Numbered from the whole stretch's first letter, positions 4,487 to 61,512 are shown. The stretch is 63,843 bases of DNA, filler included, from Vermamoeba vermiformis (GCA_045837725.1; 8 parts of 8 records of this genome joined end to end with filler, not necessarily neighbours in it), one strand, 5' to 3'. Numbers and translations are program-made. Notes: generated by a model from the sequence alone, not told the origin.

Positions 4487-4647
4487 TTTCTACATGTCAA
4501 AATTAGCAAATCTGGATCGTGCCCACTTTTACGAACTTTTTACCAGTTGTTTATGAATCGCGTGCTTGTAATAAAATAATAAGCACGATTCGCAGAAGAA
4601 ACAAAACTCCCACGTGTGGGAATCTGGCACGTGGGCGTGACACTTTC

Positions 4648-7454: not shown

Positions 7455-8673
7455 ATGGTAGAAAACAACCCTACCGTGTTCAGCAGGGTTGCATTCCATA
7501 CTCAATACCCACGTGTTGTCTTGCGCAAGTCGCAACAGTAAATGATCGGAAAAAAACGGCAACATTTTTATTCAGCGCAAAGCAAGTTTCACGGGAGCAC
7601 GCAGGCAACTATAATATGCTTAGGAACGAATACAAAAGTACTTCAATCCGAAGAAAATCGCACAACAGCGAAGATTCAACTCACCAATCCACGAATCTGC
7701 TCCCTACCTGCACTGATTAATGCATCTTTTGCGTTCCGGGGTAGGTTATGATATATATTACGTACAAAATAACGATAATTTTATACCAAACGCTCATTCA
7801 GATTTTTTGTTAATTTTTTTTTTACGATCCGCTTTTAACGGATATTTGGCAATACCCACAAAATATTTTGAAGACGAAGAGTATTTCTACATGGTATTCG
7901 ATAATGAATATGAATCGCTATTAGAATATTTCAGTACTATACCAGCAGAAGAATATAACGAAAAATTAATCGTTCGGCTGATCCAGCAAGTGATCCACGC
8001 CATGAAATATTTGCACGAACGAAATTTATTCTTGGTAACTTGCTTTGGCACACTTCATTTAGGCATGAAGCGGTCTACAAACGGAAAGGTATATTCGAGA
8101 ATATTATTATTCATATTTTGATTACTTTTCCTCGGATCTAACTTGGATCTTGGATCTTAGATCTGTTTGCAGCTCGCCAACTACATGTATAATTGGTATG
8201 CGATATATGCACCTATAATATACCCTGGGTATTTGCTATCTCCGGATATAGTCCATGAAAATCCTACGTTGACTGTTAGTTCGGATCTGTTCTCGCTTGG
8301 TACGTACAATTTCCTTTTTTGGAATAGTCCATTAGACATTTTAGAAATTAATTGACATTATTATTCATAAGGTATATTGACCAAGTTCTTATTAACTGGA
8401 ACATACTTGTACGATATTCATCCGATGAGAGCAATGTTCGAAATGAGAAAATTTCAAAGTTACGCGCTCCAAGATCCGAACAACGAGTTGTCAGATCTGG
8501 CCAAAGATTTCATTTTGCGATTATTGAAGCGTAATCCAGAAGATAGAATGACATTAGAAGAGGCATTGAATCATCCGTGGCTGACGAATCCGGAGCCAAG
8601 TACTTCACCTCTCAAAACTGCCTATGCGAGCCTCACTACTGACGATATTTCTCAAAGCGATGATGAAGAATAA
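7455..8673 (+). CDS. Ser/Thr protein kinase-like protein, probable pseudokinase
   Basis: C-lobe motifs IQQVIHAMKYLHERN, SDLFSLG, AKDFILRLLKRNPEDRMTLEEALNHPWL are present. No HRD or DFG (LQLANY at the DFG position). Start approximate. Confidence 0.7.
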
Positions 8674-8928
8674 AAAAAATTTATTAATTTGCCAAATTTT
8701 TGGCTTGTACGAGCAAGCATTTCAAAAAAATTTCGTCTTAATTCCAATGATTTGGAATGTTTGAACGAGTATTTACCACGCAAAATGAACGCAAACAATG
8801 TGAGTGTTACGCCGAAACAGTGTAAGTCCTATTTATTTTGCCCTTTTGATATCCCATCTACGGAGGACCTTTACAGGAACATAAATTTTGACGAACCCCA
8901 ATTTTAACTCGCATTTGGAACGAACACC

Positions 8929-10102
8929 ATGAAGAGAAGATTTGAAGACCAAGTAAGCGCAATTTAATTATAGCGTAGTTTAATTTGTATAGCAGGATGA
9001 GGATAGAATCAATTTAAAGCGATTTAAGGCAGATGATCAACAAAAAATAGTAGAATTGCCAAAAGATATTTTGAAAATAATTATTGGATATTCGGAAGCG
9101 AAAGAATTAGCTTTATTTATAATTTCCGCTAAGTCTGTGCAAGATCTTTTTTCAGAATCTGAATGGATGCGTCTTTACGTTCAGCGGTGGAAAATTGATC
9201 AAGTTAAAAACCCTCCTAAAAATACTTTGGCGATGGTAGAAGGCATAATACTTATTTTTGGCTAATATAAACCTAACGTGTCTTGCCCCAGACTCGATCC
9301 CCAAGTGCAAGAAGATTCGTCCTGTTTAACTATTGGCACGAATATTCTTGGAAAATTAAATACAAATTACGCTCACAATTAGGCAATGAAGTGCCTGTTC
9401 CCCAAGTTAAGCCTTTACTCTTTCCAAATCTGAATCCACTACGGATCTCGTTCTATAAAATGAATAACGACGGTCAAGAAGTTAAATATGATAATTTGGA
9501 TACTATCAAGGAGGAAAATAGAGAAATGTATCCGGATGCAATTACCGATCCACGACAAGAAGACGATTTTGACACGAAACATGTGGCCGTAGAGTTCATT
9601 GCAATTGGTCCTTCTACAATTCCGGTGAAATTTCGCGTGGAGATGCAGCCACCAATCAGAATATCAAAAGTCGTTCGGCCACCAAAGCCACCTGTGTCAC
9701 ATCCACGAGTGCAATCACGACGAGGATTAGCTGTTCGAAGAGCTCCTATTGAAAATGAATATAGACCTGCAAAAATGAGATATTTTAGTGAGAGATTTAT
9801 GGTGTATAATAACGAGACTAAGAGCTGGCACGTAAGTCGTAAACCGAAAGTTGAAACTTGGAAATTTCCTTATTTGGAAATTACGTAGAAATCAATCTCC
9901 AATCCGATCTTAATTATTATATTGTCAGGTAATTGCAGTGTATTATAACAACTTTCGACTAGAAGAAGAAGAACGATTGCACTACGGTGATTTTCATTCC
10001 GTGCTTGAACTCGTGATAGGCCGTGAACAGTACAAAGAATCGTATGTGAGAGCGCTCAATGTCATGGATCAGCTTCGTGAGGCAGCGAATATTGTATTAT
10101 AA
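8929..10102 (+). CDS. F-box-like protein
   Basis: IVELPKDILKIIIGY....LALFIISAKSVQDLF..SEWMRLY N-terminal F-box pattern; short introns link ORFs 9056 and 9283. Confidence 0.6.
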
Positions 10103-10270
10103 TAAGCAGTTCATTACTCGCTCAGAATACCGAACTAAAAAACTTAGTTACTAATTCGCAGGCCTTGGTTCTATTTTTACTCTATTGTTCGTTCATGAAA
10201 TATCACAAATTGTTCCTTTGTTTGTATTCGATGGTTGGAGATAAAATCAATAAGGGTCATAGGTAAAGCC

Positions 10271-10370
10271 NNNNNNNNNNNNNNNNNNNNNNNNNNNNNN
10301 NNNNNNNNNNNNNNTTAATTAATTAANNNNNNNNNNNNNNNNNNNNNNNNNNNNNNNNNNNNNNNNNNNN
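10271..10370. other. Artificial contig linker (N44-TTAATTAATTAA-N44)
   Basis: Identical 100-nt spacer with stops in all six frames, repeated seven times in the window. Confidence 0.98.
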
Positions 10371-16300: not shown

Positions 16301-18837
16301 GCGTACTCCTCGAGCAACGGATCCTCCGTGTAATGGAACTGAATGACAATAAGCAACGGGTGCTATATTAAAACGACATGAAAAGCGTACCTGAAGAGGG
16401 TCATCGGTTGACAATGACACGTTAAGACCTTTCTTGAAGAACCGTGCAAAAGGATTGTCCTTGTACTGCAAGAACAGTTGGTGGTTGCTGAGCGGACTAA
16501 CAGCGAGACCAATCTGCTTCAAGTAATACAAATATTGCAGCACTGGCGTCTTGGCCAAATTGATGCCGTGGTTAATGTGCTTGGCGACCAAGAAACTCGA
16601 GGCCAAATGGTCCAAGTCACCAGATTCACCGCAGTGAGGTCTGAAATCGAACGGTTTCATGCCACGAAGTCTTCGGAACTTGTTCAAAACCGTGATATTT
16701 GCCCAAAAATAGTAATTGTAGTACGCGTACGGTGGATTTTCTTCCGTGTTCCAATTCTCAGGGTAAACCTTCGCCGTACTATGAAATCACAGTTAGATTT
16801 TCATTCCCTACTCAAATAGGCTTACTTTTCGTCGAATTTACGCTCAGCTCTGCTTTCATCATCGACACTATCAAAGGCGCAAACATGAGTCAAAAACTTG
16901 TGGAGATCCGGATGCGAAGAAGGATCCCGGGTTACTTCGAACAACGGCATGAACATATCTGAGAAGATATTATTAGTGATTAATTCGACGATTGAAATCG
17001 TTATCTTACTTTCGAGCAGTTCTTGGAAGTGCTTCAAACCGACTTTCTTCAACACGAAGAAAATTCTCGGGAACTGAATGACCCAACGGTTGTGAGCTGA
17101 AAATAGATCGTTGTTCACGACCCACTTGGCCAATTCATCCCACTCGCTCGCCTTACGACCGTAGATCGATACACGGTACTCAGCCATTTGGTACTTGCTT
17201 TTCTCCATCTTCTTCAGGCACTCCTTTGTGATGTCAGCGTAATATTTGCCTTCAATCACATTGGCCGTCTTTAAGAAGACATCTCTTAGCTCGCCTTTGC
17301 CAAATGGATTGTACTTCATATTAAACTTGTCGAAGCGTTGGAACGTGTCACCAGCCTGTCCAAAACGTCAGATCCGGATCCAAATTTTTCAAATTTGCTT
17401 TGTTATGGATACTATGGTAGGGATATATGTACTTACGCGAGTCTCTAATGAGTCCAAAGTAAAGTACTCGGGGTTAATGTTAAGACGATTAAACAAGTCT
17501 TTCAAAGTTTCTTTCTTGCCGTCTTTGGTGACATTAACGATATCCTGCAACACATATAAATAACACTATAATGCTCGCAAATAATGATTTATACTCACAT
17601 CGGGACGCTCTTTAACAGTCTTCTTAATAAACTCCAATAGGTGCTTTGAAGTCATTGCAGCACTCAAATGAATGTGCGTGTCGACCTTGGTCACGGACTC
17701 GAAGTCTTTCGGATCCCACTAAAACATGAGGGATTAAGCAAATGAATAGTATTAATATATCTTATATATACTTACTTGTGATGCCAATTGTTCTCTCGAA
17801 TCGTTCAATAGAATGTGAAAATCGAATTTGAATTCCAAACTCTTCAAACGGAAGTACGAAAACGTCTTTGCAGGGCCAGTATTATCAGTTTCGACGACAC
17901 TAAATAATGAAATTTCAGCAAATTAAGAATACAAATAGAAAGCATAAAAAGCCTTACAATTTGTAGTCTTGCAAATAATCTTCGACACTAATGACCGGTG
18001 TAACGTCTATAAGACAGATTAATAACTTATAAAAGCATATTTTTATAGCATACCTGTTTCACCGTCAAATGCGTGTATAATACCGTTAATAGTCTTCATA
18101 GTGTGCTGCATTAAAATTTTTCAGTAAACGATCGGAGCACAAACGGCAATTCCGTTTGATTTAAAATTAAGATCATGATTGATATTAATACCTGTGATGC
18201 CGGCATGATAGGATCAAATGTTCCCAGCGTAAACATGCGATCTACGCACGGATTCTCTGCCTCGTACTTTGTTCGAAGTTGTAAACATTTTGTGATCAAA
18301 CGGCAGGCGGTTACGGCCTCCTCTGAAGGGGCAACTATAAAAATAAAATTAGAATAATTATTTAGTGCTCCGTTAGCAAACCCGGACCTCAAGAGCTAAA
18401 TCTGGAAAATTAAATCGGAAATTTATTTTTGAGGCGTTACTCCTTGATCTTTAATAAGACTTACCACTAGACTGAATAACGGCTCGAGGGAAATTGGTAT
18501 CATATCCTTTAGATAATTTTTCTATGAGCTGCTTCTTTTGCAAGATCTGCGAGACGGGTTTTTTCCACCAAGTATGCGAAGTTTTCAATGACTCATGTCC
18601 TTGCAAAACTGTGCCAGGGGCTGTATGATAAATATAATTATATTTTGGTCTAACTCGAAGGACTTAGAATTGTAGAATTTTATTTTTTCGGTAAATCTGG
18701 CTTAGCCAAGTAATTTGACCATTGTAGTATTATTACATAATCCACCTTTTGAGGAGAATCGATTTTTAGAATTTTTCTGATTACTTACCTTCCACAACGT
18801 TCGGATGGAGGGTGGGAAGCTCTCCTTGACTATCCAT
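13339..18837 (-). CDS. AMPD: AMP deaminase with two tandem deaminase domains (N-terminal canonical, C-terminal degenerate)
   Basis: Domain 1: [60 protein letters not shown]. Domain 2: [44 protein letters not shown]. Intron 16023-16075 joins them in frame. Many short introns. Confidence 0.92.
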
Positions 18838-19259: not shown

Positions 19260-19359
19260 NNNNNNNNNNNNNNNNNNNNNNNNNNNNNNNNNNNNNNNNN
19301 NNNTTAATTAATTAANNNNNNNNNNNNNNNNNNNNNNNNNNNNNNNNNNNNNNNNNNNN
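19260..19359. other. Artificial contig linker
   Basis: N44-TTAATTAATTAA-N44. Confidence 0.98.
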
Positions 19360-34011: not shown

Positions 34012-34111
34012 NNNNNNNNNNNNNNNNNNNNNNNNNNNNNNNNNNNNNNNNNNNNTTAATTAATTAANNNNNNNNNNNNNNNNNNNNNNNNNNNNNNNNN
34101 NNNNNNNNNNN
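34012..34111. other. Artificial contig linker
   Basis: N44-TTAATTAATTAA-N44. Confidence 0.98.
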
Positions 34112-35377
34112 CGTAAAAAGAGATAAAGGAAAATTTCGGCATGATTTTTTTGCGCGTTCCGACAGTTTGCACTGTCAATAATGACTCTTTATATGCAACA
34201 CATATTGTTTATTAATGAGGCAAAACGAGATTAAAATTGGTAGTGAGTGGCAATCGCATCTGAATGTGGCACGTGCCCGTTGTGATTAACAAACAGATGT
34301 TCAAATGCTAGTATATGATCTAGGGTATTTTAGCAGTGTATAATAGATATAATTAACAGCTGTGCTCGTTTTTGTGGCAAATTATGAGATCAGATGTGAG
34401 ATTAGGCCTCGGCGAATTTTGCTCCGTTAAATAATAGTCGTAATATCTTTAATACTAATAATCAATATATTTTTGAGCATTTGATTACACAAGAAAAATT
34501 TCTGGAGCGAATATTTTTTAAAAGATCGGATTGACGCTTTGCCTGCATAATTACTTCGTTTTTATCAATAATTTGAATGTTTTATAATCAATATAGCTAG
34601 GTTTAGCCCATTAGATTTGTTTGAGAGCAATCTGTCGAATTAAATGAGATCGGCAGTGCCTGCTGTATTACTCCATGACGTAATGAGAGTTATACTATTC
34701 TCTCAAAATTTAACAAGCTAATACTTTGCCCTTAAGGGCTAACCCCTGCAGGATCAGGGGCCGGATGTAGTTGTTTTTCAAACATGCTTGTAAGCACAAC
34801 AATTGTACATCGACATTATCAAGATACAGCCGCAGTTTCAACCAAAAAGATGCACTACTAATAGAGAAACCTTCGTGTTTCTTGTGCCCGGCTATTTCCT
34901 TTTTTGTAAAAAAGTATATTTTCTCATGCAAAATTTTTTCTGTTAGTATCTCTTCTTTTCGTAAAAAACCATCACGCAGCAGGATATATATTAATGGTAT
35001 TGTGCTTGCAACAATTTTTGCTGCAGATCCGTTGCTGGATGTGGCTGTAAAAAATTTCAAAGTTTAATTAGAGCCGACTAGCAAATTAACGGCGTCATAT
35101 ATTTTTTGGGCCACTAAACCCACTAAAATTATCCGATGGTGGTCAAATTGACTTCACGGTTCTCGAATCTCGTGGGCACAACCGGAAAAATGAACCTTAA
35201 CAATTTTGAAATGCCGTAAATTATAATTTAAAATGTCCTTGCAGCAGCATGCATTATTTCAATTAATTTTATCATAAATTTTCCTTTATCTCTTTTTACA
35301 ATAGTCATCAATGATCGCATCTGGACTTTTCTCTGTTGTCCATCGATGTGCAATAGGCTGACATTTTATACTTATAG

Positions 35378-38300
35378 GAGAAGTTATTGGCTTAGCAATA
35401 ATCACAATTTCTGAAGCTGCGGTCACCGGAGTCGGATTAGCCTTTTTGATCACTTACGCGCGATATTTGCCTAAAACACCGAAAGTAATCAAGCCAAAAA
35501 TATACTCAGTGTATATATCTATCTGTTGGTTTCTCATTCAATGGTTTCCGCATGCTCAATTACGTAAGTTTGTTACGGGTTATCTCGCGCGAGCACGATC
35601 TAATTTTACGGATGGAGAATCTTTATTTAAATAAATCATACGAATATAAGAATCATAATGGCAGTGATACCATATAAAGATGATTAATAAGCTAATATGT
35701 GCTTTTAGATAAAATGTTCGGGCCAGATGTGAACGCCTTGATCTCGCTCGAAATGACTTTTCATTGGGTTAATGTCGTTGCGTTAAGTATATTAGCATAC
35801 TACCAATTTGACATTATGATGTTGTGCATGGCGTAAGTTAAATAGGCTAATTCCCAATCGAATTCTAAATTTTTATGTTTTTTTTCGGTGGATCCGACCC
35901 ACAACTAAATTTATCTTATTTTTTATCGTCTTCGTAATACAATACCTTAATTAAGTATTTTGATATGATTTAACTGTACGATATTGGTCTGATATTGAAC
36001 TTCTATTTTTAGCCTCACTCGCACGAAAGAAAATTTGGCTCGTTTGGAAAAAGGAGAAAAAACGCGCGAAGAACAAGACCGAGACAGCAATATGAACGCG
36101 AGTCCTATCAAACGATTCTTCTTGAACACCAAGGTCCACGTAGTCCTCATAGTCATCGTTTTCTTTTTCGCCTTGTTCTTTGGTGTTCAAAGGTAAGAAA
36201 AGTATTCACTGCAGATCCGTTTAAGGAAATTTCTGCAAAGATAACAGGTGATGACATTTTGACTCCATGTTTGACACGTGTCATTTGCAGAGGATTTCCT
36301 AAGTCTCCTTTTGAACTAACTGAAGTCCAAGCTGGTTTGTTGATTGCTGTTGAGGTACGACTGTTATATATTTCGCAGTCGACTGTAACAATAAAATTAC
36401 GTTTTTCAACATAGAACGACCACACTTATATCTTAAAGTTATATTTCTGTACAAAGTGGTCCCTGAATTGACGGCAATTGATGCGAAGTGCCGTAACTTT
36501 TGGTTGGTAAGCCAGATGCTGGATTTGTTTTTTCTGATCTTCGCATCACAACAAAATTAACGACTAATTCCATCGCGATAAATCATAATATTAATAATAG
36601 AGTGCCTCGTAAGCAATTACAAGCACTTTTGAATTATTTTGAATTATTTTTTAAAATTAACGCCTCCGATCTGTTCGGCCATTGTGCTGCAACTATTCGG
36701 GTCGTACTTTCGATTTGTAACACTCTTATTAATACAATCTTATTGATAGGTGTGCGACTTCATATTGAGAAGATTTTGTACAGGCGATTTAGGGGACCCG
36801 GACTCTATTGTTTGAGTTTTTTCTGCCATCTTTGTAAACAAATTCCAGTAAATTTCGCACAATAGTGGTGAGTTATTATCACTTTATACATGGCTAATGA
36901 TTACTCAGTTTATTTTTGATGTGTTAGATCCGAACCACACGCGACCTCGAAAAGTGCCTCGGCAATGGCCAAAGTAGTAAACCTTGGTGCCACATGCTAC
37001 ATTAGCAGTTCTTTACAGCTATTATTTAGTATTGAAGCTTTCCGTGAGCTTGTTATATCATCAAAACCTACACACAAACTTGCGATTGAATTTCGACAGA
37101 TTATCACACTTATGAAGAGTAATAAAACAATTCATATCGAACCATTAACAAGGCTATTGAAAATATCAAAAGCAAGCTACCAAAAAGAACACCGTGATTT
37201 ACAAGAGTTTCTGCTCAATTTATTGGACAAGTTAACTGAAGACTCTGAGTTCAAGCGAATTATAAAGCAAGTTTTTGGTGGTGCCTTACAACGTAATGGT
37301 TCAGAATTAATGGAGCCTTTTATAGGTACAAATGACTGCTGCAACTCGACTTAATTTCAATTGACTTTATAATTTAGATATTTCAATTCCAGTTGCCCCC
37401 GGCAATGTTGTGGACAGTTTAGTTCAACTTTTCAGCAGTGTACGTAACATTTGCATAAGACTTGGATTTTAACTTATTCAATGATAAGGACTGGGGTTCA
37501 CACAAATTTTTGACATTCCCCACTGCATTAGTCCTCCACCTTAAGCGTTTTGATAATCTGGGCAACAAGAATGAAGCGAAGTTTCACTTCAAGTCAACTC
37601 TAGTTATTCCAGCAAAGCTCAGTTGTAGTGGTCATGCAGAGACCTACCAACTCAAATCAATAATAGTGCACCAAGGAACTGCTAAACAGGGTCACTACGT
37701 AACCTACAGCCTTGCGAACAACCAATGGCTTGAACTCAATGATGCAGTCGTCTCAAAGGTAGTCAAAGTATGCCATTTTGCAGGTTCTAACCTCAATGTA
37801 GGCTCCCAAAGACTTCATGCAGAGGTTATTTGAGGGAATTGCAAGTGCTTATATCTTAGTGTACTGCACACAGCGTATTTCATCCCCAACCAAGTCCAGA
37901 CCCACACGAATTATTGGAAATGAATCACAGCAATTTAATGATTTTATGGAATGGGACTCAACATCATGTCAAAGTGATCCAATAGAGATATCAGATAGTG
38001 AATATGAAGCAAACGAAAGTGATGATATGAGTGAATCAATTGAAGAAGATAATGAAGAGACATCAGAAGTCGCAAGTCCTGCAGCAGTGAAAGAAGGTAT
38101 TGATTTCTCATTCATTAATCATTTTGATAACCATTACTGGCAGCTAAACTTCAAGCAAAACTGTCTGGGTGGAAAAACGATGGGAGTAAATTCAAGCCCA
38201 AAACTTCTCAACCATTGACAAACCCAGGACCAAAGCACCAGCTCATCTTAACAAAAATTAATGCAATACGTCATCAACTGGGAAAGCCAAAACTGTCTTC

Positions 38301-41036
38301 AACACTACGTGTCACAGAGCTTGACTGTTACTTACTTATGATGAATGACATAATTGAACATATTGAAAAAACAACAGATGCAAATCTGCACATCAAAGCA
38401 GTCGATTTGCGCGCTTATCTTGGTGTTAGAATTGCACAACAATTATCGCCAGGTCATTCTGTTGATGACTCTTGGGCCTCCTTTTTGCATTCACGCGCCA
38501 TGTGGGGCAACAGGTGGATTGCTAAAACAATGCTAAAAGATGAATTCAAGTTTATACACCGGAACAAAAAGTAAGTTCGTTGTTCACTCACTGTAATGGT
38601 TCTTACCTTTGGTCTTAGGTATGATGTGTACTTTGTTTGGGCAGCTCTGAATCAAACCTACTCAGAAATATGGGTGCCATTCAGCCACCTTGCTTTAGAT
38701 GATAAAGCAAATGCTTGGAAAGGAAGGTCAATTTACAAGATTTACAGATTACGCAAGCCATTCCCTTGGGCAATGTTAGAATATGTCATTATTGATGAAA
38801 GTGGATGGATGTCTGGCTTCATTCCTCGATATGGACTGTTTGCTACCATAACAGACAAGTTCAAGAAATGGCGAGAGTTATATCACGCCTTCAAAACAGG
38901 TCAACTTTCGCAAAGACCTCTACCATTTAAAACAATGTTTCCACGAGCATCAAAGACAAATTTCGATTTGGAAAAAGCCGTCAGTTTTTTATTGTCAAGA
39001 CTCCCTGACAAACAAAGGCACGTTTATGACTTTATTAGAGAACCCACAAATTATGAAGAATGGAACAATCTGACAACTCGAAACTTATCACACTATCATG
39101 TATTTTGTGACAGAGAGTTTTCCTCACTATGGCAGCACCTGCAAAAGCACAATATTGGATACACTGTTGGCATTATTGGAACATCACACCCTAACCTGTT
39201 TCAAAACAACCTTGCTCATTGTTTACAGCCAGGACAATGGCGCAGCTTAACAAACGACTCAGATATCATCATGTCATTCTATGACCCTCAAGGCAAGACC
39301 TGTCACTGGGCTAGTAATCGAGGAACAGCAGCCTCAATTTCTGAAAAAGTAATTGATGGAAACAAAAAGAAAAAGCTTGCATACTCTGCTCCCCACTTGG
39401 TGCAACAATATCGGACATACTTCAGTTCTGTGGATAAGCATAACTCCAAAGCCAAGAAGTTTAAGTGGCCCTACCGGATTCGAAAAGTAACAGAGCGCTT
39501 AGTATTTGCAGATTGGGAGCGCTCTGCTCAAGTTCAGGCAGAAACACTCTTCAAAAGACTCACCAACAGTGATATTCCTGCCAAGAAATTTCTTGCCAAT
39601 TTAGCGCGCTCCCTGGTAGAGGAATTCCAATCAAAAAGGAAACGAAACTACACAATAGAAGCGTTAGATCTTGTGCGCGCCAGTGGAAAGCATAATCCAT
39701 ACACCCACACCTGTGCGTACGAATTTGGCAACTCCAAGCGTTGTTTCTTTTGTCAAACTCAAAAGATATCTTCTTCTACACTGTAAGTATGTGTAGGTGT
39801 ACTTTTGTCAAACTAATTAATTGCCTTAGCTACAAGTGCATTCAGTGCAAAGTTGCCTTACACAAGAAGTGCTGGAAGAAATTCAAAGGTGTAAATCTTT
39901 AAGTTTTGTACAAGGAGTTATCAGTTAACTATTGTGTGAATAGCATGTAACACGTTGTGGTGTAGCATGAGCACGAAAGTGCCTGAGGCGGCTTTGACGC
40001 AAAAAACCTCGTGTGTAGGCACTGAGAGTTTGGGGATAGTCAGCTTGCTTCAGATTTATTCACATAATCACCTGCTAGGCTAACTGTTAGTAGCATGTAA
40101 CACGTTGTGGTGTAGCATGAGCACGAAAGTGCCTGAGGCAGCTTTGACGCAAAAAACCTCGTGTGTAGGCACTGAGAGTTTGGGGATAGTCAGTTTGCTT
40201 CAGATTTACTCAACAGACGATAGCCTGGGCTACTATTGAGCTTATTTATGAGAAATGGGAGCAGCCATGTCCAAATTCTGGTACGTCTACCGTGTAGACT
40301 TCCAGTTGGTTAAGGAATATATTCAATAATACTTAACTATGCAATATTTTTTGCTCGGAAACTGGATCTAACAGATTTTTTTACTAATCGTGTTAGGTTG
40401 TGGCTTCGATTACATTTGGTATAGGTGCCGCATTTGCGATATTAATGGCGATTAATATTTCTCGGAATATTGCGCCACGCTATCAAAGAACTGCTTGGGC
40501 GAGTTACGTAGCGATCTGCTACATCTTTTTGACTGATTATTTCCACGGCAAAACGCACGGAATTTTGCGCCCCGACGACTATATCGTACGTATATAATAT
40601 GATTTGGTATGAATGCGTGCTAATGATGATTTTTTAGGGCTTAATCATTGTCGAAATTTTCTTCCACATCGGAGTTACTGCAGCAGCATTCATTTTGATC
40701 TATTATCAGCGAAAAGTAATTAAAGCTGCTTGGGTGAAGCGTCAGAGTACGTACTTTCGTTTCTTACTAAATTTTTGTCCACGGTGGATCCGCACGTTGC
40801 AACTTCTGGATCTACCTATCTAATGATTTAAAGTCATATTTAATAGCATATACTAACAATAGCCGACATCTTCTTAATATTTTAGCATTTGCGAGTGTTT
40901 CAATTGCACATGTACTAATGGATTTGTTTCACGAACCATAGAGCGCGATGTCGTTGGCACATCCGTCACACTTTCCACTTCTGCGGGTGGAAATCAATCT
41001 TCGAGCACTAGGCGTGATGAAGAAGCCGAAAAATAA
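35378..41036 (+). CDS. Polytopic His-rich membrane protein, paralogue A (first exon not located; intron 36355-40396 holds a transposon gene)
   Basis: Exon-by-exon similarity to 41333-44619: EAAVTGVGLAFL, WFPHAQLH, EMTFHW, DYFHGKTH, FFHIG. Confidence 0.8.
36965..39902 (+). CDS. USP deubiquitinase - piggyBac-type transposase fusion protein (copy 2)
   Basis: USP motifs: VVNLGATCYISSSLQ, HRDLQEFL, LVLHLKRF, IIVHQGTAKQGHY..WLELND, AYILVY. Introns 37326-37377, 37440-37488, ~37759-37801, 38097-38143, 38571-38618 and 39783-39829 keep one frame. Transposase motifs: DLRAYLG, LALDDKANAWKGR, VFCDREFSS, YRTYFSSVDKHN, and CFFC..CIQCKVALHKKC; TAA at 39900-39902. Confidence 0.9.
39941..40212 (+). repeat. 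Two ~122-bp direct repeats (period 150) downstream of the transposase
   Basis: 39941-40062 and 40091-40212 are nearly identical (about three mismatches seen). Confidence 0.95.
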
Positions 41037-41332
41037 TAGGGTTCTTTTGTATTGTACAAATTTGTTGCAATCTGATGCGGCAAAATAAAATTTTGTAATT
41101 TAGACCAGATCTTGCTTTTTTAACAATTCGGATTAGTTGATGATTAGCTGCACTATTGCTAATTATGAAATTAACATGCAATTGCTATATCACGCAATGT
41201 ATCAGAAGAGATGCTGATAGAGATTCACATATTGGATTGTGATTCGTCTCATTCTCCCATCGATTACTGAATCGCGTGACATTCATTTTCGAAACTGGTA
41301 GTATAACGAACACAATAGACAATAATACAGCC

Positions 41333-44300
41333 ATGTCGGAGCCTCTCGCGAGATCCCAAAACAACTTGGATGTAGGCACGCCTGGGAAAGCGAAGAAAAA
41401 GTGCAAGATAACGAAATGGCTGATAATTAAGATCTGCATTGTAGTCGTGATATCCTTTTCTCTGTTCTTCATAGCACAATATGCTATCCCAAGTTCTCCT
41501 CCGCCTCCAGGAGGACGAGATCCGACACAAGGTATGTCATACGACCGTTAATGAATAATTCTGCCTCTGGATCGCTCATTTAATTAATTAAATATGATAG
41601 TAATTGTATTAGTGTCCTATAATTTGCGTAGCGAAAGTTTCTAATTTTATGTCAGATCTTCGTTTACCTGAAATTTAAGAAACAAATATCTTTTACGTAA
41701 TATTAACCATTATTTAATATAGGAGAGATAGTGGGGTTAGCTATAATTAATTTATCAGAAGCAGCGGTTACGGCTGTGGGATTGGCCTTCTTGGTCTCTT
41801 ATGCTCGGTATTTACCTGGGACTCCTTCTATAATCAAGCCCAAAATATACTGCATTTATATAGCAGTATGTTGGTTCTTGATTGAGTGGTTTCCTCATGC
41901 TCAATTACGTAAATTAATGTCAAACTGTCGACATCCAAAAATCGATCTGAAATTTTTCTGTTGTAATCAATTCAATTCGCCTTATTAATTCCGTGAATAA
42001 TTATAATATTGATAGATAAGATGTATGGACCAGACGTGAATGCGAACATCGCGCTTGAAATGACTTTTCATTGGATCAATTTGGTTGCGTTAAGCTTGCT
42101 CGCGTACCATCAATTCAATATAATGTTATTATGCATGTTGTAAGTTAATATAAGCTCAAGTCGGGTTGCGAATGCGTTTTATAATCCTTCGTAGAAATTT
42201 CGATCTTCGTACCAATTATTTTTCCGGGGATAGCCTTATTTATTCTTATTGCGCACATTGCAGTTTTTAAACCTTTATAATCAAATCAATTGATATTAGG
42301 TTGACCAAAGTGAAGGAGAACTTAGCGCGGTTGGAACAAGGCGAAAAAACGATCGACGAAGAAAGAGAAGCGCTGCACCGAAAAAATCCAATCAAACGAT
42401 TCTTTTTGAATACTAAAGTGCACGTAGTATTAATTACTATTGCATTTTTCTTCGCCTTGTTCTTTGGGGTGAGAAAGTAGGTGCCCTGTTTTGACACGCA
42501 GTGAAAATAAGTCCGCGTTGAAACCACGTTCCGCAACGCAACGTTGCCAACACAGTTGATGGTTCCACGACACAACGCAACTGTAAAGACACGAAATGCT
42601 TTGATCTATTAATGCCACCCTTTAGGGCATGGTATGCAACTTAAAGCAAGCAGACAAAGCTCGTCCTACTGCGGATCTCGGTGCCCGCTGCCACTTTCGT
42701 TCACAATATTAGAAGCGCCATTGTTTAAATACTGTAACATTGCTAATTTGAACGGATTTTCGGTTTTTTAGAGTTTTGCACTGAAGACACGAAGTTGATC
42801 TGAAAAATTAGGAGCGGATTTGATTTGTCTTTTAGCGACTTTCCGCAGCTTAAAATATGCTGACGAGCTAGAAAGATACATTTGTGAGTATATCCTATCA
42901 AACGACCGGACAATCAGTCATAACAGTGCCCTGATCGAATTTGGATGGAGTAGCTCAAATGAGCGAATCTACGGTTGGGAACTCCAATTACCATATTTGT
43001 ATTATTCCAATGCATTTTAAAGTAACTACGTACTCCTTTCTGTGCCTTAAACCTCAAAACTCCCCTTGTTGTAATCTTGTGCCGAGGTGCGCGCCTAATT
43101 CGAAAAATTTATTTTAAATTTTCAAAACGCGTGTGACGACACAAAGCAGCAAAAATGGCCGGCAAACAATAAGTTATTTAAGGTTAGTATCTACTCCACT
43201 ACATTTGGCGAGTAACTACCAGACGTGCTGCAGCACAGCCAAGTTATCTGCCGAGATTTGACTTCAACAATTTATTCTGAAGCCAAATACCATAAAAGCA
43301 AAAGGTAAATATTTATATATAATATATTAGGGAAGAAATCCCCAAAATTAATTTTCTCGCACGAGTTGAAAAAGTTTGATCATCCCATAAATTCGCATAA
43401 TGTGACCTTTTACTAAACCAATGCTCTTATTATTTATTAATAAATTGTTCAGGGAACTGCCAGCGCCCAACTTACGGATGAGAAACTCGGATGAAGCCCA
43501 ACAAGTTTTTTCAGCGCATCTTGCTCTGGCAGGGTTGTTGTTGTTGTTGAAAAATATCAAAACCCCAAAGCCCTTCCAGATCACCAGAAAGAAGCTCCGA
43601 AGTTCAACGTGGCACAACTTAGCACTTTTGGACCGACCGAAATAAATGCTAAGTTCTAACCGAGCTTGTTTGAGACTTCGTATTTTTTTAGTCGTAACCA
43701 GCGACGAATGGTACTACTGCATTCCGCAACGCCCAAGGTTGCGCAACATTTTTTTTTTCAACGTTGTAAATTTTTTGGCACGCAACGTTGCGTTGCAGAA
43801 CGCGGTTTCAACGTTTACTTATTTTTACCTGTGGAAAGATATAACTTGCACCGTACTCGTTGATTCAACTAAAGCCATTCGCTATTATTATTAACTATAA
43901 TACGATAATAGGGCAATTCCAACTGCTGCTTCAGAAGTAACAGAAGTTCAAGCCGGACTTTTGACAGCGATCGAGGTACTGACTTTGAGACCCATTTCTG
44001 AATTCTGTATTTAACCAATATGTATGTAGGTGGTTGGAGCACTTACCTTTGGAATAGGTGCATCATTTGCTATTTTAATGGCGATCAATATCTCTCGCAA
44101 TATTGCGCCGCGGTATCAAAAAGTAGCGTGGGCGAGTTACGGTGCAATTTGCTACATTTGGCTCACGGACTACTTTCACGGAAAAACACACAATAGTATG
44201 GCTGGTGATGATTATACCGTACGTTTAATTTGAATTTATTCATTCTATGGCTTGGATCCGGCTAACTGTCTAACTAATACCAATTTCAGGGCCGTATTAT

Positions 44301-44619
44301 TGTTGATATTTTCTTCCATATCGGAGTTACTGCCGCAGGTTTCGTCTTGATTCATTATCAGCGAAAGGTTATCAAAGCTAATTACGAAAGACGTCATAAT
44401 AGTAAGTGACATATTGACCCTTTACATTCTTTCACTTTGCTCAGCGTCGTTCACTGAAATTTCATGTTTCTTCGTCAAGATTATTCCCTCAGTGAGGAGA
44501 ATTGATCTTTCCTTTTTATAGAACGAGTGGCGACATCAGTGACGCTGTCAACTCAAGGAGCTAATCCATCTGGCAGCGCGGCAACGAAGCCCGATGATTC
44601 GCAGCCTGAGAAACTATAA
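41333..44619 (+). CDS. Polytopic His-rich membrane protein, paralogue B
   Basis: MSEPLARSQ.. first exon with a TM helix; WFPHAQLH, EMTFHW, DYFHGKTH, FFHIG; stop at 44617-44619. Confidence 0.82.
42504..43825. mobile_element. Non-autonomous TIR element (~1.3 kb) in an intron of paralogue B
   Basis: 44-bp imperfect inverted repeats at 42504-42547 and 43782-43825. Intron is 1435 nt against 98 nt in paralogue A. No TSD seen. Confidence 0.7.
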
Positions 44620-44761
44620 GCGCGGACAATTGTTTTATTATACGAGGCATAATAGTCTCAAAATTGTATTTTTAGTTTAGTTTATTTACCAGAGATCTGA
44701 AAAAATTCTTTGACCCGCTTTGCCGCCCAATCTTGTTGTGCTGCTTAAAATGGAACGGATA

Positions 44762-44861
44762 NNNNNNNNNNNNNNNNNNNNNNNNNNNNNNNNNNNNNNN
44801 NNNNNTTAATTAATTAANNNNNNNNNNNNNNNNNNNNNNNNNNNNNNNNNNNNNNNNNNNN
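44762..44861. other. Artificial contig linker
   Basis: N44-TTAATTAATTAA-N44. Confidence 0.98.
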
Positions 44862-51469: not shown

Positions 51470-51569
51470 NNNNNNNNNNNNNNNNNNNNNNNNNNNNNNN
51501 NNNNNNNNNNNNNTTAATTAATTAANNNNNNNNNNNNNNNNNNNNNNNNNNNNNNNNNNNNNNNNNNNN
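51470..51569. other. Artificial contig linker
   Basis: N44-TTAATTAATTAA-N44. Confidence 0.98.
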
Positions 51570-55766: not shown

Positions 55767-55866
55767 NNNNNNNNNNNNNNNNNNNNNNNNNNNNNNNNNN
55801 NNNNNNNNNNTTAATTAATTAANNNNNNNNNNNNNNNNNNNNNNNNNNNNNNNNNNNNNNNNNNNN
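55767..55866. other. Artificial contig linker
   Basis: N44-TTAATTAATTAA-N44. Confidence 0.98.
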
Positions 55867-56040
55867 ATCACAGCACAGCTTCGTCAGCCTTTCTCGGTTG
55901 CAATCTTGACGCTCTAATCGCGAAAGTCTACTACTCCGAATAACACACCGCGAAGGATATGCATTTGTGTATACGATCTAAGGTATGTACATTTTCCTTA
56001 TGAGTTTCCGTTACGTGCCCTGATACGTTCGCTGCAGGTA

Positions 56041-57922
56041 ATGGATATATTTGATAAGGTTCGAAATATCACCAGCAAAAAACGTGCTAAGGCGCAGAAG
56101 CACCCACCAGCCTCCACGAGACAATCCCAACGCTTAGCAGAAAAGAAAAGCCCGGATAGCTCGCCTACAAAGAAGAACGAGAACCCTCCAAAAAAAAGAA
56201 AGCGTCAGTCCGCAGAGAACAAAAAAAATGCAGACAATGAGCCGCCAAAGAAAAAAGCTCGCACGGAGCAGGTAAGTTTAATTGTCAAAGGGCTTTTTGG
56301 ATGCTTTTTAACCCCGTTTATCCCAGCCCGACGTTAAAAATGAAGACAAAGGCGAAGAGAGCGGCTCTGAAGAATCAGAACTTGGTAAGTATACACAACA
56401 AATTTTATTGCGTACACCGGCATCCGTGCATACAGTTTCTAACGTACTGTAGGGTCAATCTCAAAGCCCTTGACTGCACGTGCTGCTGAGAATCCAGCGC
56501 AACGTTGAACAACCAGCGCAACGAGACGGTGGCAGTCAAAACATCGCATCCAAAGCTCTGATCGAGGCCGATATGAAAGAACTACAAATTAAAGATAAAC
56601 CGACATCTTCCGATCTCGATTTCCTGGTTGACGATGACGAAGAAGATGGCGAAAGCATTGAAAACCAGGAGCTGAGCTCTCCTAGAATTACCGGCGATGA
56701 TGAACCGGATGAGTCCTTCAGCCTCTCAAACTCCGCTCCAAACTCCCCACCACGTCAACAGACACGTAGAATTGGCTCTTTGAAAGAGGAGCTGAAAACC
56801 AACAAAGGTGAGTTCGGTTACGTAACTCGATTCGGATGTGACTGACCTTTTGCAACGTAGAAATCAGCTCCAGTACCATGGCTGTTCTCAAACCGTCATC
56901 TCTGTTAGCTAGTGCGGAAGACGAGTCCCCGACTTCCCAAAAGAGGCACATCCGGCGCTACATCTCCGAACTACGAGAGCAGTTTGAAGAGTTTCCGAAG
57001 CTTGGAATATTTTTTCGAATGCACACGGGCTTGGAGAGGCCATTGATAAAGTCAATCGTTTTTGAGAACGATGAATTCCACCTGGATGGCGTCCCGGTTG
57101 AAATTCACAAATTTAAAGAAAAAAAGGGAGAAGATGAAATCGAGAGAGAAGTCGACGGAAATACAGATATGGTGCCCGCCAGTAAGTGTTGAATTAACCA
57201 ACTTATTTTTTGTATACACGTTAACAATTTGGTGTATACGGTTAGAACTGTCCAAGCGCTTGGAGAATGCTTTGAAGAAGTGCTGTCTAGTTAAGAAGTT
57301 CTACGATGTTTTGAAGACTACGCGCAGCATTGGTACTTCCAACTTATTCTCCACTGGCCAAGACGTCGAGAGCTACGTGCGCAACGGAACCTTGGATCTC
57401 GACTGCAACAGCAATGCAGAGGTCATCGAGAAATTGGACGAAGTATTTTCATCTATGGGGCACTTCTACAACAACCAGATGGAGCTGGTCGTCATGTACA
57501 AACTGAAGGCGTATTACGTCGGCGGTATTTTAGCGCAAGTGGGCAAACGCTTTGCCGAAGAGGCTCCAAAACGCGACCCTCCCATCACCGGCACCAGAAA
57601 CATCGAGGTTTACGTTAACAACAACATCTTTGAGTTGTTGAACTTCTGCAAGTGGGATTCTATCGTGGAGGCTGTTGGAGAAGACGAGGAATTGAGTTTT
57701 ATCGGAGCCTCTCCGGTTCCCTTGAAACGAGATTTTTTTCGGCAATGGAAGTGTCGCATCAACAAATTTTTTAATATTTGCAAGCTAGAAATTAAGCTGC
57801 TATTTACTAATCTATCCTATTCCACGATATGCAAATTATTTCCAGCCAAACAACAAACGTTGGAGGCTATAATTACGTCCATTAGAAGTAGATCTGACGA
57901 ATTCCCTGTTTTCGACGATTAA
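56041..57922 (+). CDS. Homologue of cluster gene A
   Basis: Basic/acidic low-complexity N-terminus; C-terminal exon aligns with 26177-26893 and stops shortly after DEFP in both. Confidence 0.75.
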
Positions 57923-57940
57923 TAAATCTTTTGTAGTGTT

Positions 57941-60900
57941 ATGGAGAAGAACGAACGTTTTTCTAAGGATTTCGACCTTGAAGGTAATCGCAGTTAATTT
58001 TTGTAACGGTAAATAATGTATTTTTAGATTATCCCGCCAGGCGAATTTCCGTCGTTGTACGATTTGGAGTCTATAGTTGCTGAAATTGAGCCACAGCCAC
58101 CACAAAACTACCGTTGTTATGGTAATGCGGTCTTTTTAATTGCCCGGTAATAATAATCACTCGCAGACATTGCTCGATTCCAGGATGAGGACTTCGAGCT
58201 CGGAGATGAAGTCGATTTCAATCAATTCATCAACTCACCACCCCCAAAAAGCAACGTACTCAAAGGTAAGGAAGAATATTTATCAAACGAATTTCTTTTA
58301 ATATTTTTGCGATCAGACAAATTGGATTCTAGCATAAGCGACTCAGACGTTAGCAATTCAAACGCGGAAGTTTCGGATTCTGCTGAAGAAAATTTCAGCG
58401 AGCGGCAACAACAGTTTGTAGATGCATGGAAGGCTCTCGACCCATTGCGCGTGGATTTCGATCCGGTCTCTTTCCACCAACTGGAAGAAGAAGAACAGCT
58501 CGGTGTTCTCTGTTCTGTTGAAGGGTAAGTTGTAACAACATTACGGGTTTAAAATAATATTAATCGTGCAACAGGGATCTGTTTGTTAAGAATGATGAAG
58601 GAACTACTGACTACAATGAAAATTACTTGGCACGACTACAAGCTGCTCTTAGAGAAGGCTCGATCAAGCCCACATTGTTCACGCAACACTTAAAAGAAAA
58701 TGCTCGGATCGTATCTGGCCCAGAAGATTTCGGCGACAACTTTCTTTCTTCACTCAAATGGATGACTTCTCGTCATTACCTTGGTCCCAAGTTTTATCTT
58801 ACGGACAACCAAGACACGCAATTCAAAGCGTGCTTGGATTTGGACTTCACGGGATTCGTGACCGAAACTCTTCACGTTTTCAAAACTGGCTTGGAGATGG
58901 TCTACTCACCGAACTTGGCGTCGACATTGAAGTCATGCAAGATGTCCTATGGTCCCAAAGCGTTGAACAAGTGCCCTAGCATGCTTTTTGGGTAAGCTGT
59001 TCGTATACACCATATTTTGTATACACTTTTTGTAGCTATCGCCTTCTAACGATAATTACGATAGGCTAATTGAAGGAAAATACCCAATTTATATGGTTCT
59101 CCCTAAGTGCCCTCCCGCTCAACGATCAGATGCAATTCACGCTCTGTACAAAAATGCCATATTTCCGGGTACGAAAAATTAGATCTTTTCGGTTAAATAG
59201 CCTTTCTGACCAGTAATAGGTGTTATCGAGTCTGAACAAGGTAGAACGTCTCCAGTAGCTCTTCCTTATGAGGACGTTATCTCTGTTGCTCCGAAAGGAG
59301 ACGCGTACCAGATCAACCAAGCAACGTTGATGTGCATCCAAAAGCACATAAATGAGTACACAGTTTCAGAGCCAAGGTATAATAATCTAATTACTTTCAT
59401 CATTTACTAAAATTGTACAGCTGGAAGCCGATCTACGTGGTTCAGTACTTTGGGCACAAGGAAAGAATCGAGTCGGAAGAGGAATTAACAGCATTTTATG
59501 CGACATTGGAGAAGACTTTCAATTTAGCCTTTGTGTTTGAACACACTGAAAACAACGTGACTATGTTTTATCAGGACATTGCCGTCGATGTTGTGTAAGT
59601 CTGTGCGCACGAAATTTTGTATACACTTTTTAACTCGCTCTTATTTTAGTTGCGAGGATGAGGAAAACGTGATGTCGTTTTGGAACCGAAATTTATTCTC
59701 CAAGTTCATGGATAAAGCTTTGTCGCCTTTTAAGAACTTAATGGTACGAAATGCAACAACATTTAAACGCGAGATCGCTGTGGATGTTGAGCGCGACTAC
59801 ATCTACCCCACGTGAGTCCTTTATTTACGCCAAATTATCATTTTTAATATTTACGAGTTAATTAGATTTACTGAATATCCTAACTTTGGGCTCGGCGCGT
59901 TGGCAAATGGCGTGATCGAGTGGAAGAAGCGGCATCTACTTTTGACCAAGATCAAGGCTTATCAGCGAGTCAGCCAAGACTTTCGCCACGTTGTTCCATT
60001 TAGCAAACTCCTTCACGCTGCTTTGACCTTTCCTTTCGCCAAAGTTAAGTCGTTCTTCGCGGGTGAATCTGGCCTCTCTACAAAATTCCTCCAAAAGTAA
60101 GTATAATTTGTATAATAATATAGTGCTAATACGCCATCAATTTCAGGTTGGATGCTGAAGTCGCTGCAGTTCAATCCCGAAAGCATCTGCTCGATGCAGA
60201 GAAAATGTTCGGGATCATGCCCCAAAAAGCTTATGGTCCTCGTGTGGAGCTCACTTTGCAAAACCCGCGGTTGCAGAACTTGGTTGAAGCATTCAGAGTC
60301 CTTGGAACTTTCGCTCGCGCAGTTGGAGCTTCGTTCAATATGTTGAAGGCTGCCTATCAGTGCAGCTTGATACCGCTCGAGCTGATGCGCTGCAGCCCAA
60401 TACAAACAGTATTGACATCTACAGTTGCTCTCTTTCCGCGTATGATGACCAGAAGTCTTGCCAATTCGTTCTACATTTTGCTTGATAACGCGATACAAAG
60501 TAAGTTTGTGTATACGAAGTTATGTGTATACATTTCTAATTTTGAGTAGACCGAAAACTTGATGGCTTGGACTTCAACAGCCACTGGATCAGATTGGCAT
60601 TTTTGCTGCAAGACCAGCTTACCTTTTTGTGGACGGGGTCGTTGCAATCTTTAGTTCATCCGTCTCTGTTCGCTCGCTACAAACAGAAGGATGCGATCCT
60701 GGATCTCGGTCACTACTTTGTTCCTCCTCAATTGCTTCAACTTAGTCAAGATTACGGTCGAATCAGATTGCATCTTCCCGTCAGATCTGAGTTCGGACTC
60801 ATAGAAGAAGACGAGGTTGACGAGTTAGATGTACTGACTCTTCCTCGTCGCATGATCTACGCTCTTTTCCCTAATTTCGACGATCAAGACGCCATTGAAG

Positions 60901-61278
60901 GAATTATGCATAAGATTCGACTCTGCTTGCATGTCTCAGAAGGTCCAGTGGCGCCGTTGGAAAATAGCGTGGGGTGGATCATGGCCGCTAATCTACTGAA
61001 CTCTATGTTCGAATCAGTCTTTGAAGTGGCCAACATAACGACGAGAGAAGACAGAGATGATTTCCTGGAAGCACTGAAGACGGGAGAAGTTGCCCTCGAA
61101 CAGTTTTTCGCCGGTCGCGTTCCGCTGATTGAAGTAAGTTAGAATAACACTGAAATAAGTTCAATTTAACTTTTATCTTTATTTAAATCAGGTTCACACC
61201 TCTCCAATCGTTGTTTTCCCAGCGGATGTGGTCGATTTGGTTTTTGGTGATCCGCAAAAAAGATTGTTCCGCAGTGCA
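57941..61278 (+). pseudogene. Homologue of cluster gene B, 3'-truncated by telomere repeats
   Basis: DLDFTGFVTETL, EYPNFG, KIKAYQ, MPQKAYGPRVELTLQNP, YQCSLIPLELMRCSP. The last exon (from 61192) runs into (TTAGGG)n after ~29 codons, whereas the contig 3 copy continues for over 200 more codons. Confidence 0.75.
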
Positions 61279-61378
61279 AGGGTTAGGGTTAGGGTTGAGG
61301 GTTAGGGTTGATGTGGGTTAGGGTTAGGGTTAGGGTTAGGGTTAGGGTTGTGGGTTAGGGTTAGGGTTAGGGTTAGGG

Positions 61379-61412
<34 letters not shown>
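61279..61412 (+). repeat. Telomeric (TTAGGG)n tract
   Basis: About 21 units with a few variants (TTGAGGG, TTGTGGG, TTTAGGG), G-rich strand pointing to the contig end. Confidence 0.96.
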
Positions 61413-61512
61413 NNNNNNNNNNNNNNNNNNNNNNNNNNNNNNNNNNNNNNNNNNNNTTAATTAATTAANNNNNNNNNNNNNNNNNNNNNNNNNNNNNNNN
61501 NNNNNNNNNNNN
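61413..61512. other. Artificial contig linker
   Basis: N44-TTAATTAATTAA-N44. Confidence 0.98.

Follow-up and report, generated by a model that had tools for sequence, protein, structure and literature searches.

A predicted USP-piggyBac fusion gene in Vermamoeba vermiformis, probably a domesticated transposase kept across deep divergence

In ciliates, programmed DNA elimination is driven by domesticated piggyBac transposases, which have also been implicated in vertebrate neural development. The piggyBac transposase tolerates N-terminal fusions, for which the idea of a "3' exon trap" has been put forward, and in the examples given, SCAN-PGBD1 and CSB-PGBD3, splicing places host exons ahead of a complete transposase of piggyBac origin, and selection has maintained the fusion (available sections of PMC5381638). 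Proteases directed at ubiquitin or SUMO have been described on other transposons, OTU and Ulp1 on Ginger1, Ulp1 on Mutator, and OTU and VTD on Helitrons (excerpts of PMC2836005 and PMC9741609), and one sentence in the former source mentions a Trichomonas vaginalis protein with transposase_11 and Peptidase C19 domains. We describe here a gene located at 36965-39902 (+ strand) in a stretch of 63,843 nucleotides (nt) of Vermamoeba vermiformis DNA (GCA_045837725.1), hereafter the window. We call this gene copy 2 because the same window contains one other fusion of this type, the very divergent copy 1. The predicted product of copy 2 carries a ubiquitin-specific protease (USP) deubiquitinase in front of a piggyBac transposase. 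With a probability of roughly 0.65, we interpret it as an old, immobile, host-maintained ("domesticated") transposase fusion and not as a currently mobile element. Both N-terminal host fusions to piggyBac and proteases on transposons are thus known, and it is the pairing of USP and piggyBac that is new in the accessible portions of the literature searched: no description of such a fusion was found there, and the supplements of PMC12062965 (domain co-occurrence) and PMC5381638 (S4, S9) might list one.

Copy 2 resembles CSB-PGBD3 and PGBD1 in its general layout and differs from them in its partner domain, which is a SWI/SNF ATPase fragment or a SCAN domain in these proteins and a USP deubiquitinase in copy 2. 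The triad of catalytic aspartates (DDD triad) is fully kept in copy 2 but altered in PGBD1 and PGBD2 according to the table of PMC5381638, whose available text also calls the PGBD3 triad "not strictly conserved". In copy 2 a single exon contains both the end of the USP and the acidic start of the transposase, and the junction itself therefore has no intron, unlike that of CSB-PGBD3 and PGBD1, and the transposase part of copy 2 contains three introns, again unlike theirs. PiggyMac, Tpb2 and PGBD5 share with copy 2 the lack of recognisable transposon ends and the conservation of the catalytic aspartates and of a Cys-rich tail (available parts of PMC8086355, PMC3861120, PMC4625184 and PMC5381638). 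The same parts of these sources do not mention a deubiquitinase domain for them, whereas copy 2 carries a USP. Both fusion genes of the window use ordinary stop codons. The Ginger1, Mutator and Helitron elements and the T. vaginalis protein, for their part, combine as copy 2 does a transposition enzyme with a deubiquitinase-like protease (C19 being the USP family). Their protease domains are C-terminal (Ginger1) or belong to other protease families, whereas the USP of copy 2 is N-terminal. In the excerpts at hand none of them is described on a piggyBac transposase, and no transposon ends were seen at copy 2.

Copy 2 is a real, expressed gene of seven exons (36965-37325, 37378-37439, 37489-37758, 37802-38096, 38144-38570, 38619-39782 and 39830-39902). 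Joined by their coordinates, they form a single frame of 883 amino acids (aa) that is free of internal stops and closes with a TAA codon at 39900-39902. The six introns measure 52, 49, 43, 47, 48 and 47 nt and all have GT..AG ends. From the N-terminus, the protein consists of the USP, a linker that is first Ser/Thr-rich and then acidic, the piggyBac transposase, and a Cys/His-rich tail. The original prediction, in which six short introns yield one frame with this order of domains, was borne out in every checkable detail (883 aa, Pfam), and we found in copy 2 all the motifs that it had named, the Cys box MAKVVNLGATCY, the His box GHY...LND, the acidic stretch of the linker, LDDK, CDREF, SVDKH and the Cys/His-rich tail. 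The parts of the gene are given below, one per line; X1 is the run whose spliced contigs cover part of the gene and L001 a metagenome contig with a homologue.

36749-36867 and 36928-36964, + strand: 5' untranslated region (5'UTR) exons, separated by the intron 36868-36927; a further 5'UTR exon ends at 36505
36965-37873, + strand: USP/UCH deubiquitinase domain (Pfam), residues 1-255, on exons 1-3 and the start of exon 4
37326-37377, 37440-37488 and 37759-37801, + strand: introns inside the USP part, from the gene model, the second and third also in X1
37874-38096, + strand: linker, residues 256-330, Ser/Thr-rich then acidic, sharing its exon with the end of the USP
38097-38143, + strand: predicted linking intron 4, 47 nt, GT..AG, phase 1, with a counterpart in L001
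38144-38570, + strand: transposase N-terminal region, residues 331-472, with GW..G..F.P and PGPK motifs
38619-39693, + strand: piggyBac catalytic core, residues 473-830, with Asp499 (LDDK), Asp636 (CDREF) and Asp744 (VDKH)
39694-39902, + strand: Cys/His-rich C-terminal domain, residues 831-883, split by intron 6 (39783-39829)

Both enzymatic halves were recognised by Pfam. The UCH family (PF00443, cut-off 23.9 bits) matched exon 1 with 59 bits (E 7e-16, profile positions 3-129) and the exon-3 frame with 64.6 bits (E 1.4e-17, profile positions 142-238), and DDE_Tnp_1_7 (PF13843, cut-off 22.4 bits) matched exon 6 with 43.3 bits (E 3.8e-11); exon 5 gave a weak match to the start of the latter profile (14.9 bits, under the cut-off). 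The catalytic triad of the USP is present as Cys11 (NLGATCY), His210 (GHY) and Asp226 (LND). USP34 has the very same NLGATCY heptad in its Cys box (7w3r, E 7e-10, Cys-box half aligned). GHY and ND are invariant in the His-box alignment (A2) and align to USP28, and the His-box profile matches USP28, USP18, USP12, USP46 and USP7 chains. Compared with USP34-, USP7- and USP25/28-like domains, the domain of copy 2 is about 255 residues long, without zinc-ribbon CxxC pairs and without accessory USP domains; it is a compact and probably active USP. On the USP tree (25 rows, 22 of them reference USPs), copy 2 and L001 adjoined USP7-like proteins (SH-aLRT 93, the subfamily placement being weak and the branches long).

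In the transposase half, the profile alignment, counted from its printout, placed Asp499 and Asp744 on Asp268 and Asp447 of piggyBac 6x67_C. Asp636 fell outside the aligned stretches of the PDB chains; together with the two others it is invariant in the ten sequences of our transposase alignment (A1), the profile of which matches piggyBac 6x67 (E 1.1e-7) and piggyBat 9c0f (E 6.9e-6). In the clade of copy 2, Asp499 and Asp636 are 137 residues apart, for a spacing of about 78 in piggyBac (Asp268 to Asp346). The extra segment between the two residues (PRF.P...KP.P.K...K..F.L...LLS.LP) is kept in 10/10 sequences of A1, USP-less ones included. The GW..G..F.P and PGPK motifs of the N-terminal region are likewise found in USP-less relatives. 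The tail shows a Cys/His pattern that Pfam zf-Tnp_2 did not match and that gave weak RING-like (E 0.041) and C1 (E 0.18) matches.

A homologue of the entire protein was recovered when metagenome contigs were scanned with the A1 profile, which yielded at least two relatives, L001 and L002, among the 568 pattern matches listed. L001 is a contig of 4379 nt and the source of the database protein P0001. With tblastn, the copy 2 protein aligned to it in four collinear pieces covering residues 1-883. Seven exons (523-886, 928-992, 1047-1316, 1356-1659, 1703-2126, 2173-3339, and 3388 to the stop) encode an open frame of 888 aa, starting with MAKIVNLGSTCY, in which Pfam found UCH on two exons and DDE_Tnp_1_7 on exon 6 (40.2 bits). 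All six introns have the same codon positions and phases as those of copy 2 (phases 1, 0, 0, 1, 2, 2), and every catalytic residue is kept. The two proteins are 58.4% identical overall, with 49% in the USP, 38% in the linker, 60% in the transposase N-terminal region, 65% in the core and 83% in the tail. The proportions of synonymous (pS) and nonsynonymous (pN) differences between the two sequences (Nei-Gojobori) were as follows.

USP domain: pS 0.79, pN 0.346
Transposase N-terminal region: pS 0.81, pN 0.270
Catalytic core: pS 0.81, pN 0.233
Cys-rich tail: pS 0.90, pN 0.105
Linker: pS 0.549, pN 0.473 (pN/pS about 0.86, nearly neutral, the least conserved part)

As pS exceeds 0.75 in every domain, a dN/dS ratio is not computable there. 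The saturated pS and the low pN in both enzymatic halves point to selection on both. Divergence is saturated, yet the fusion, the splice pattern and both active sites are kept in the two sequences, which argues for long-term selection on the fusion as such; the comparison indicates that the whole of it is kept under long-term purifying selection. The original prediction had claimed such selection, and this part of it holds, on better evidence than it had itself used, namely the frame, the introns and the pN and pS values of L001; its extension to a single lineage with copy 1 was not supported (see below). The global nucleotide identity of introns versus exons was uninformative, unrelated flanks already being about 60% identical. 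That the fusion could be a decaying pseudogene, or a chance exon trap without function, is hardly credible when 883-888 codons stay open with intact catalytic residues at saturated synonymous divergence, when pN lies far under pS in each domain, and when spliced X1 contigs exist; the in-frame TAG in the USP-homologous frame of copy 1 and the sparseness of the family, with 37 matches in 1.84 billion proteins, are the points in favour of this idea.

These 37 proteins were obtained with HMMER, using exon 6 against representative proteins clustered at 50% identity (E <= 1e-3), and form a sparse, divergent piggyBac branch. The closest to exon 6 of copy 2 are P0001 (66% identity), P0007 (57%) and P0002 (53%); those of a second group, P0003-P0006 and P0008, reach about 26-32% identity. 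Pfam detected UCH in 0/18 relatives of the transposase part, finding DDE_Tnp_1_7 only. P0001 (415 aa) and P0002 (300 aa) are exon-sized open reading frame (ORF) calls and thus uninformative on the presence of a USP, and the other "USP-less" relatives are likewise ORF predictions from short contigs. L002, a relative with 28% identity, extends only 235 nt beyond its match on the upstream side, which is too little to tell whether a USP is present. P0004/P0045 and P0042 begin with MKR..R followed by an acidic stretch, like the acidic N-terminal part of the copy 2 transposase, and this start would be their true N-terminus. The "longer" homologous-protein search gave no match with exon 6 nor with USP exon 1. 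Among the 22 USP proteins found with A2, none carries PF13843 in the precomputed Pfam column, and the Atlas search with exon 6 returned piggyBac clusters only, UCH being listed in none. No relatives were found in the scan of viral contigs, nor in genome contigs scanned with the copy 1 ORF and with A1.

Expression was seen in run X1, which contains 26% of the sampled words of the window and whose contigs were placed on 34200-44700. Its RNA label is a guess; its contigs are spliced, which implies a cDNA origin. The contig joints 37439/37489, 37758/37802 and 38570/38619 correspond to introns 2, 3 and 5 of copy 2 (3/6 introns), introns 1, 4 and 6 lying outside X1 coverage. X1 also shows two 5'UTR introns, 36506-36748 and 36868-36927, the second of them read from a loose contig end at 36867 that resumes with letters found at 36928. 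A TGA across this 36867/36928 joint closes the upstream frame, so that the ATG at 36965 is the start codon. The X1 pieces at 38286-38570 and 39588-39739 show 0 differences from the gene, which means that X1 was derived from this organism or one nearly identical to it. In the RNA raw-read runs X8, X9 and X10, which carry the same species label, 1, 1 and 0 reads fell on the 10.5 kb around the gene with its neighbours, and the organism is evidently not in them.

The linking intron 4 is probably used, which would give a single USP-transposase polypeptide. This is supported by the intron of L001 at the same position and phase, with 43 nt and GT..AG ends. If that intron is retained, the frame of L001 stops 3 codons in, at the fourth and fifth in-frame codons of the intron. 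In copy 2 the unspliced frame ends cleanly at 38216-38218 (stop-to-stop frame listing) and intron 4 is outside the X1 contigs, and one could thus imagine that a small USP gene ends at 38218 and is followed by a separate piggyBac-derived gene, the two being joined by an artefact of the gene model. We consider this very improbable. The transposase N-terminus has no start codon of its own, and since the first Met of its frame is about 55 residues into exon 5, a separate gene would lose a stretch conserved in L001 and in USP-less relatives. A terminator and a promoter would not fit into the 47 nt between the two frames. At the corresponding codon position L001 carries a GT..AG interval of about this size in the same phase, and in copy 1, too, the domains come in this order, with an intron following the USP.

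The flanks of the gene bear on a more serious rival, according to which copy 2 would be the transposase gene of an autonomous piggyBac-like transposon carrying its own deubiquitinase to help transposition; the USP would then counter ubiquitin-dependent degradation or modulate repair, as proposed for the OTU, Ulp1 and VTD domains. We regard this as unlikely. The repeat search found no terminal inverted repeats bracketing copy 2 in 34200-42500. Short-word comparison of the upstream and downstream flanks (34200-36964 versus 39903-41200, and also those of L001) gave only matches of 9-11 nt with E 0.09 or worse, and an inverted counterpart of the conserved 3' block ..CCAGTTGGTTAA.. was not found upstream, either in the window or in L001. 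These negatives cover the contig pieces only, and ends farther out are possible. The window contains no near-identical copies of copy 2. The close relatives in the databases are 53-66% identical, none of them near-identical, which is a weak point as the library was clustered at 50% identity. The two spliced introns of the 5'UTR and the three introns inside the transposase part, the latter kept in L001, fit a resident gene. Copy 2 is, in our view, such a resident and apparently immobile gene.

The region downstream of the stop codon contains two conserved features.

39935-40234, + strand: two tandem 150-nt units 3' of the stop (Tandem Repeats Finder), core CATGT..CA.GTTGTGGTGT..CATGAGCAC
40282-40321, + strand: 40-nt block, 90% identical to L001 3813-3852, a small hairpin then CCAGTTGGTTAAGGAATAT

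L001 also has two tandem 150-nt units (3485-3784; alignment A3, mean column identity 75%), and a core of 31 nt is invariant in the window and L001. The core motif matched twice in the window for 0 matches expected, both times within the units, the 31-nt stretches being 39944-39974 and 40094-40124. The 3' parts of unit 1 and of unit 2 pair across the window and L001, showing that the duplication is older than their split. Besides its small hairpin, the 40-nt block holds the string CCAGTTGGTTAAGG and a TTAA. In a fold proposed by RNAalifold for the 3' region, 13 of 37 pairs were changed on both sides, for only four sequences, and Rfam gave on 39850-40450 only a chance-level snoRNA match (15 bits versus a gathering score of 50). 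Non-coding DNA conserved beside saturated synonymous sites must be functional, and this stretch could be a 3'UTR or regulatory element, an RNA, the binding site of the protein itself, or a transposon end. The loose end of an X1 contig at 40320 was considered as a transposon boundary and set aside: L001 has a 12-nt indel at the matching place and similarity resumes beyond, so that the loose end is better read as an indel or allele difference.

Several observations weigh against a host-maintained fusion, most of them in favour of a transposon. The blastn alignment of copy 2 and L001 continues past the stop for about 420 nt, and the 5' flanks have no similarity. This conserved 3' end could belong to a transposon, with tandem units resembling possible subterminal repeats and a TTAA in the last block, but conservation of the 3' flank without that of the 5' flank speaks against a transposon. 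Two USP-piggyBac genes in 64 kb of joined contigs hint at many copies, the DDD triad and the Cys-rich tail are fully kept, and protease or deubiquitinase domains do occur on Ginger, Mutator and Helitron elements (excerpts of PMC2836005 and PMC9741609). L001 may be the orthologue of another species or belong to a mobile family as a diverged copy, its contig carrying no neighbouring gene, and active transposons are likewise under purifying selection. Two further points concern the protein. The depth table shows an X1 coverage gap at about 37928-38285 that spans the linking intron (38097-38143): the USP contig ends near 37927, and the depth bin 38061-38411 is filled wholly by the contig starting at 38286. 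Finally, AlphaFold2 on exon 6 with A1 produced a poor model of the core (mean pLDDT, the predicted local distance difference test, 53.3; pTM, the predicted template modelling score, 0.50). The best three Foldseek matches of this low-confidence model were piggyBat and piggyBac (E 3e-6 to 5e-3, TM 0.36-0.43).

The other fusion of the window raises the question of whether the two genes belong to one family.

About 4392-599, - strand: copy 1, USP-piggyBac fusion, at least 10 exons, about 1115 aa in the model, on a separate contig from copy 2

Copy 1 consists of a USP, a long linker, a DDD core and a Cys-rich tail, and ends in TAA. Pfam gave 62.7 bits for UCH and 50, 22.8 and 18.1 bits for DDE_Tnp_1_7 on successive exons. 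At 3465-3463 (-) the frame homologous to USPs meets a TAG, located between what remains of a CPTC zinc ribbon and the LVSMPDILHLHLHRF block; this stop could be a pseudogene lesion, part of a 36-nt intron, or read through. According to the splice search, an open frame needs either that 36-nt intron, unusually short and with a poor acceptor, or a frame-switching alternative, and this requirement makes the integrity of copy 1 uncertain. In the long linker (1803-2989, -), where a "chromo-like insert" had been suggested earlier, the single Pfam match at E <= 0.1 was DDE_Tnp_1_7 at the C-terminal end. As the original prediction had stated, copy 1 and copy 2 are only weakly similar, their transposase parts being 30% identical over 115 aa (E 3e-15) and their USP parts 24% over 194 aa (E 3e-4). 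Two introns of the copy 1 USP lie roughly where introns 1 and 2 of copy 2 sit, which hints at a related source of the USP, in an alignment too weak to rely on.

The transposase tree comprised 33 rows; of 46 proteins, we excluded any shorter than 300 aa as well as the five from the P0001 cluster, as these duplicate L001. Copy 2, L001 and P0002 formed a clade (support 99) that was sister to ten USP-less proteins within a 13-row clade (support 100). Copy 1 branched outside this clade, next to P0016, among ordinary piggyBac-like proteins and on a long branch. Forcing the four USP-side rows together changed the log-likelihood by -62.75 units and was rejected by the approximately unbiased (AU) test (p=1.05e-9), with the caveats that the USP group was named after the tree had been seen and that copy 1 is a long branch. 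The USPs of copy 1 and copy 2 were also apart on the USP tree, that of copy 1 on a very long branch, and a single USP clade was not rejected there (AU p=0.265). The view of both copies as one deubiquitinase-armed piggyBac family found no support in the transposase tree. The opposition drawn between a selected lineage and an exon trap was a false choice, since an exon-trapped fusion can later be kept (CSB-PGBD3, available sections of PMC5381638).

On present evidence, the USP-piggyBac architecture seems to recur in two distant piggyBac lineages. Such a recurrence may reflect two fusions, the transfer of a USP module between lineages, or an ancient fusion lost many times. The bolder proposal is that distant piggyBac lineages acquired an N-terminal USP on two or more independent occasions and kept the fusion with both active sites intact; it appears doubtful to us.

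The two fusions are unlinked. The window contains seven gaps, each composed of N44-TTAATTAATTAA-N44 (10271-10370, 19260-19359, 34012-34111, 44762-44861, 51470-51569, 55767-55866 and 61413-61512). The 12-nt TTAATTAATTAA was rejected as a biological repeat, being a six-frame stop linker between N runs. With these linkers, the window represents at least eight joined contigs (2.3-14.7 kb) whose order and distance are meaningless; copy 1 belongs to the piece 1-10270 and copy 2 to the piece 34112-44761. The pieces resemble one another in GC content (0.36-0.44) and in intron style, which fits one organism.

On its own piece, copy 2 is bracketed by two paralogous spliced genes (35373-36195 and 41718-42479, spacing 6.3 kb), about 75% identical in three blocks and without Pfam match; the upstream one is expressed in X1, with introns of 145 and 180 nt. 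X1 also shows a GT..AG skip of 1435 nt in 42476-43912, for usual introns of 40-60 nt in this DNA, and joints with CG..AG ends and one extra letter each at 40584-40638 and 44217-44290, which may be alternative alignments of ordinary introns. Of the neighbouring ORFs that were scanned, 9/10 had no Pfam family. Elsewhere, an exon of AMP deaminase was found at 16825-17367 (-) (Pfam 213.8 bits), its nearest Atlas clusters being mostly Arthropoda and Chordata records, which taken by itself would be a weak hint at a small animal and not a protist. The piece 55867-61412 ends in (TTAGGG)n at about 61373-61412, including one TTTAGGG unit, with the G-rich strand running 3'-outward, and looks like a real chromosome end with vertebrate-type telomere repeats.

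If copy 2 is the domesticated fusion that we favour, its transposase-derived half would bring the protein to DNA and would probably still nick or cut it, as reported of PiggyMac/PGBD5-type proteins; retention of DNA cleavage is suggested by the DDD triad kept in all ten aligned relatives. The tethered USP could then remove ubiquitin at the DNA site, and its possible substrates include chromatin (H2A/H2B-type marks), repair factors, or the fusion protein itself, which would be protected from degradation.

Copy 2 links the themes of domesticated piggyBac transposases and transposon-borne proteases in one predicted polypeptide with an apparently active USP, kept across deep divergence. To our knowledge, nobody has tested the role of the ubiquitin- or SUMO-directed proteases present on several DNA transposon superfamilies, and copy 2 offers a compact natural system for asking what deubiquitination does for a cut-and-paste enzyme, be it stability, chromatin access or repair control. 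Genome engineering makes wide use of piggyBac, which accepts N-terminal fusions, and a natural fusion with a deubiquitinase (DUB) may therefore also interest that field. Should the two copies be independent fusions, they would represent a case of convergent domain recruitment. They would then suggest that DNA cleavage of the piggyBac type needs ubiquitin to be removed locally, and would possibly point to a new class of DNA-guided "DUB-nucleases" that might act on the 31-nt motif downstream of the gene or in programmed genome rearrangement.

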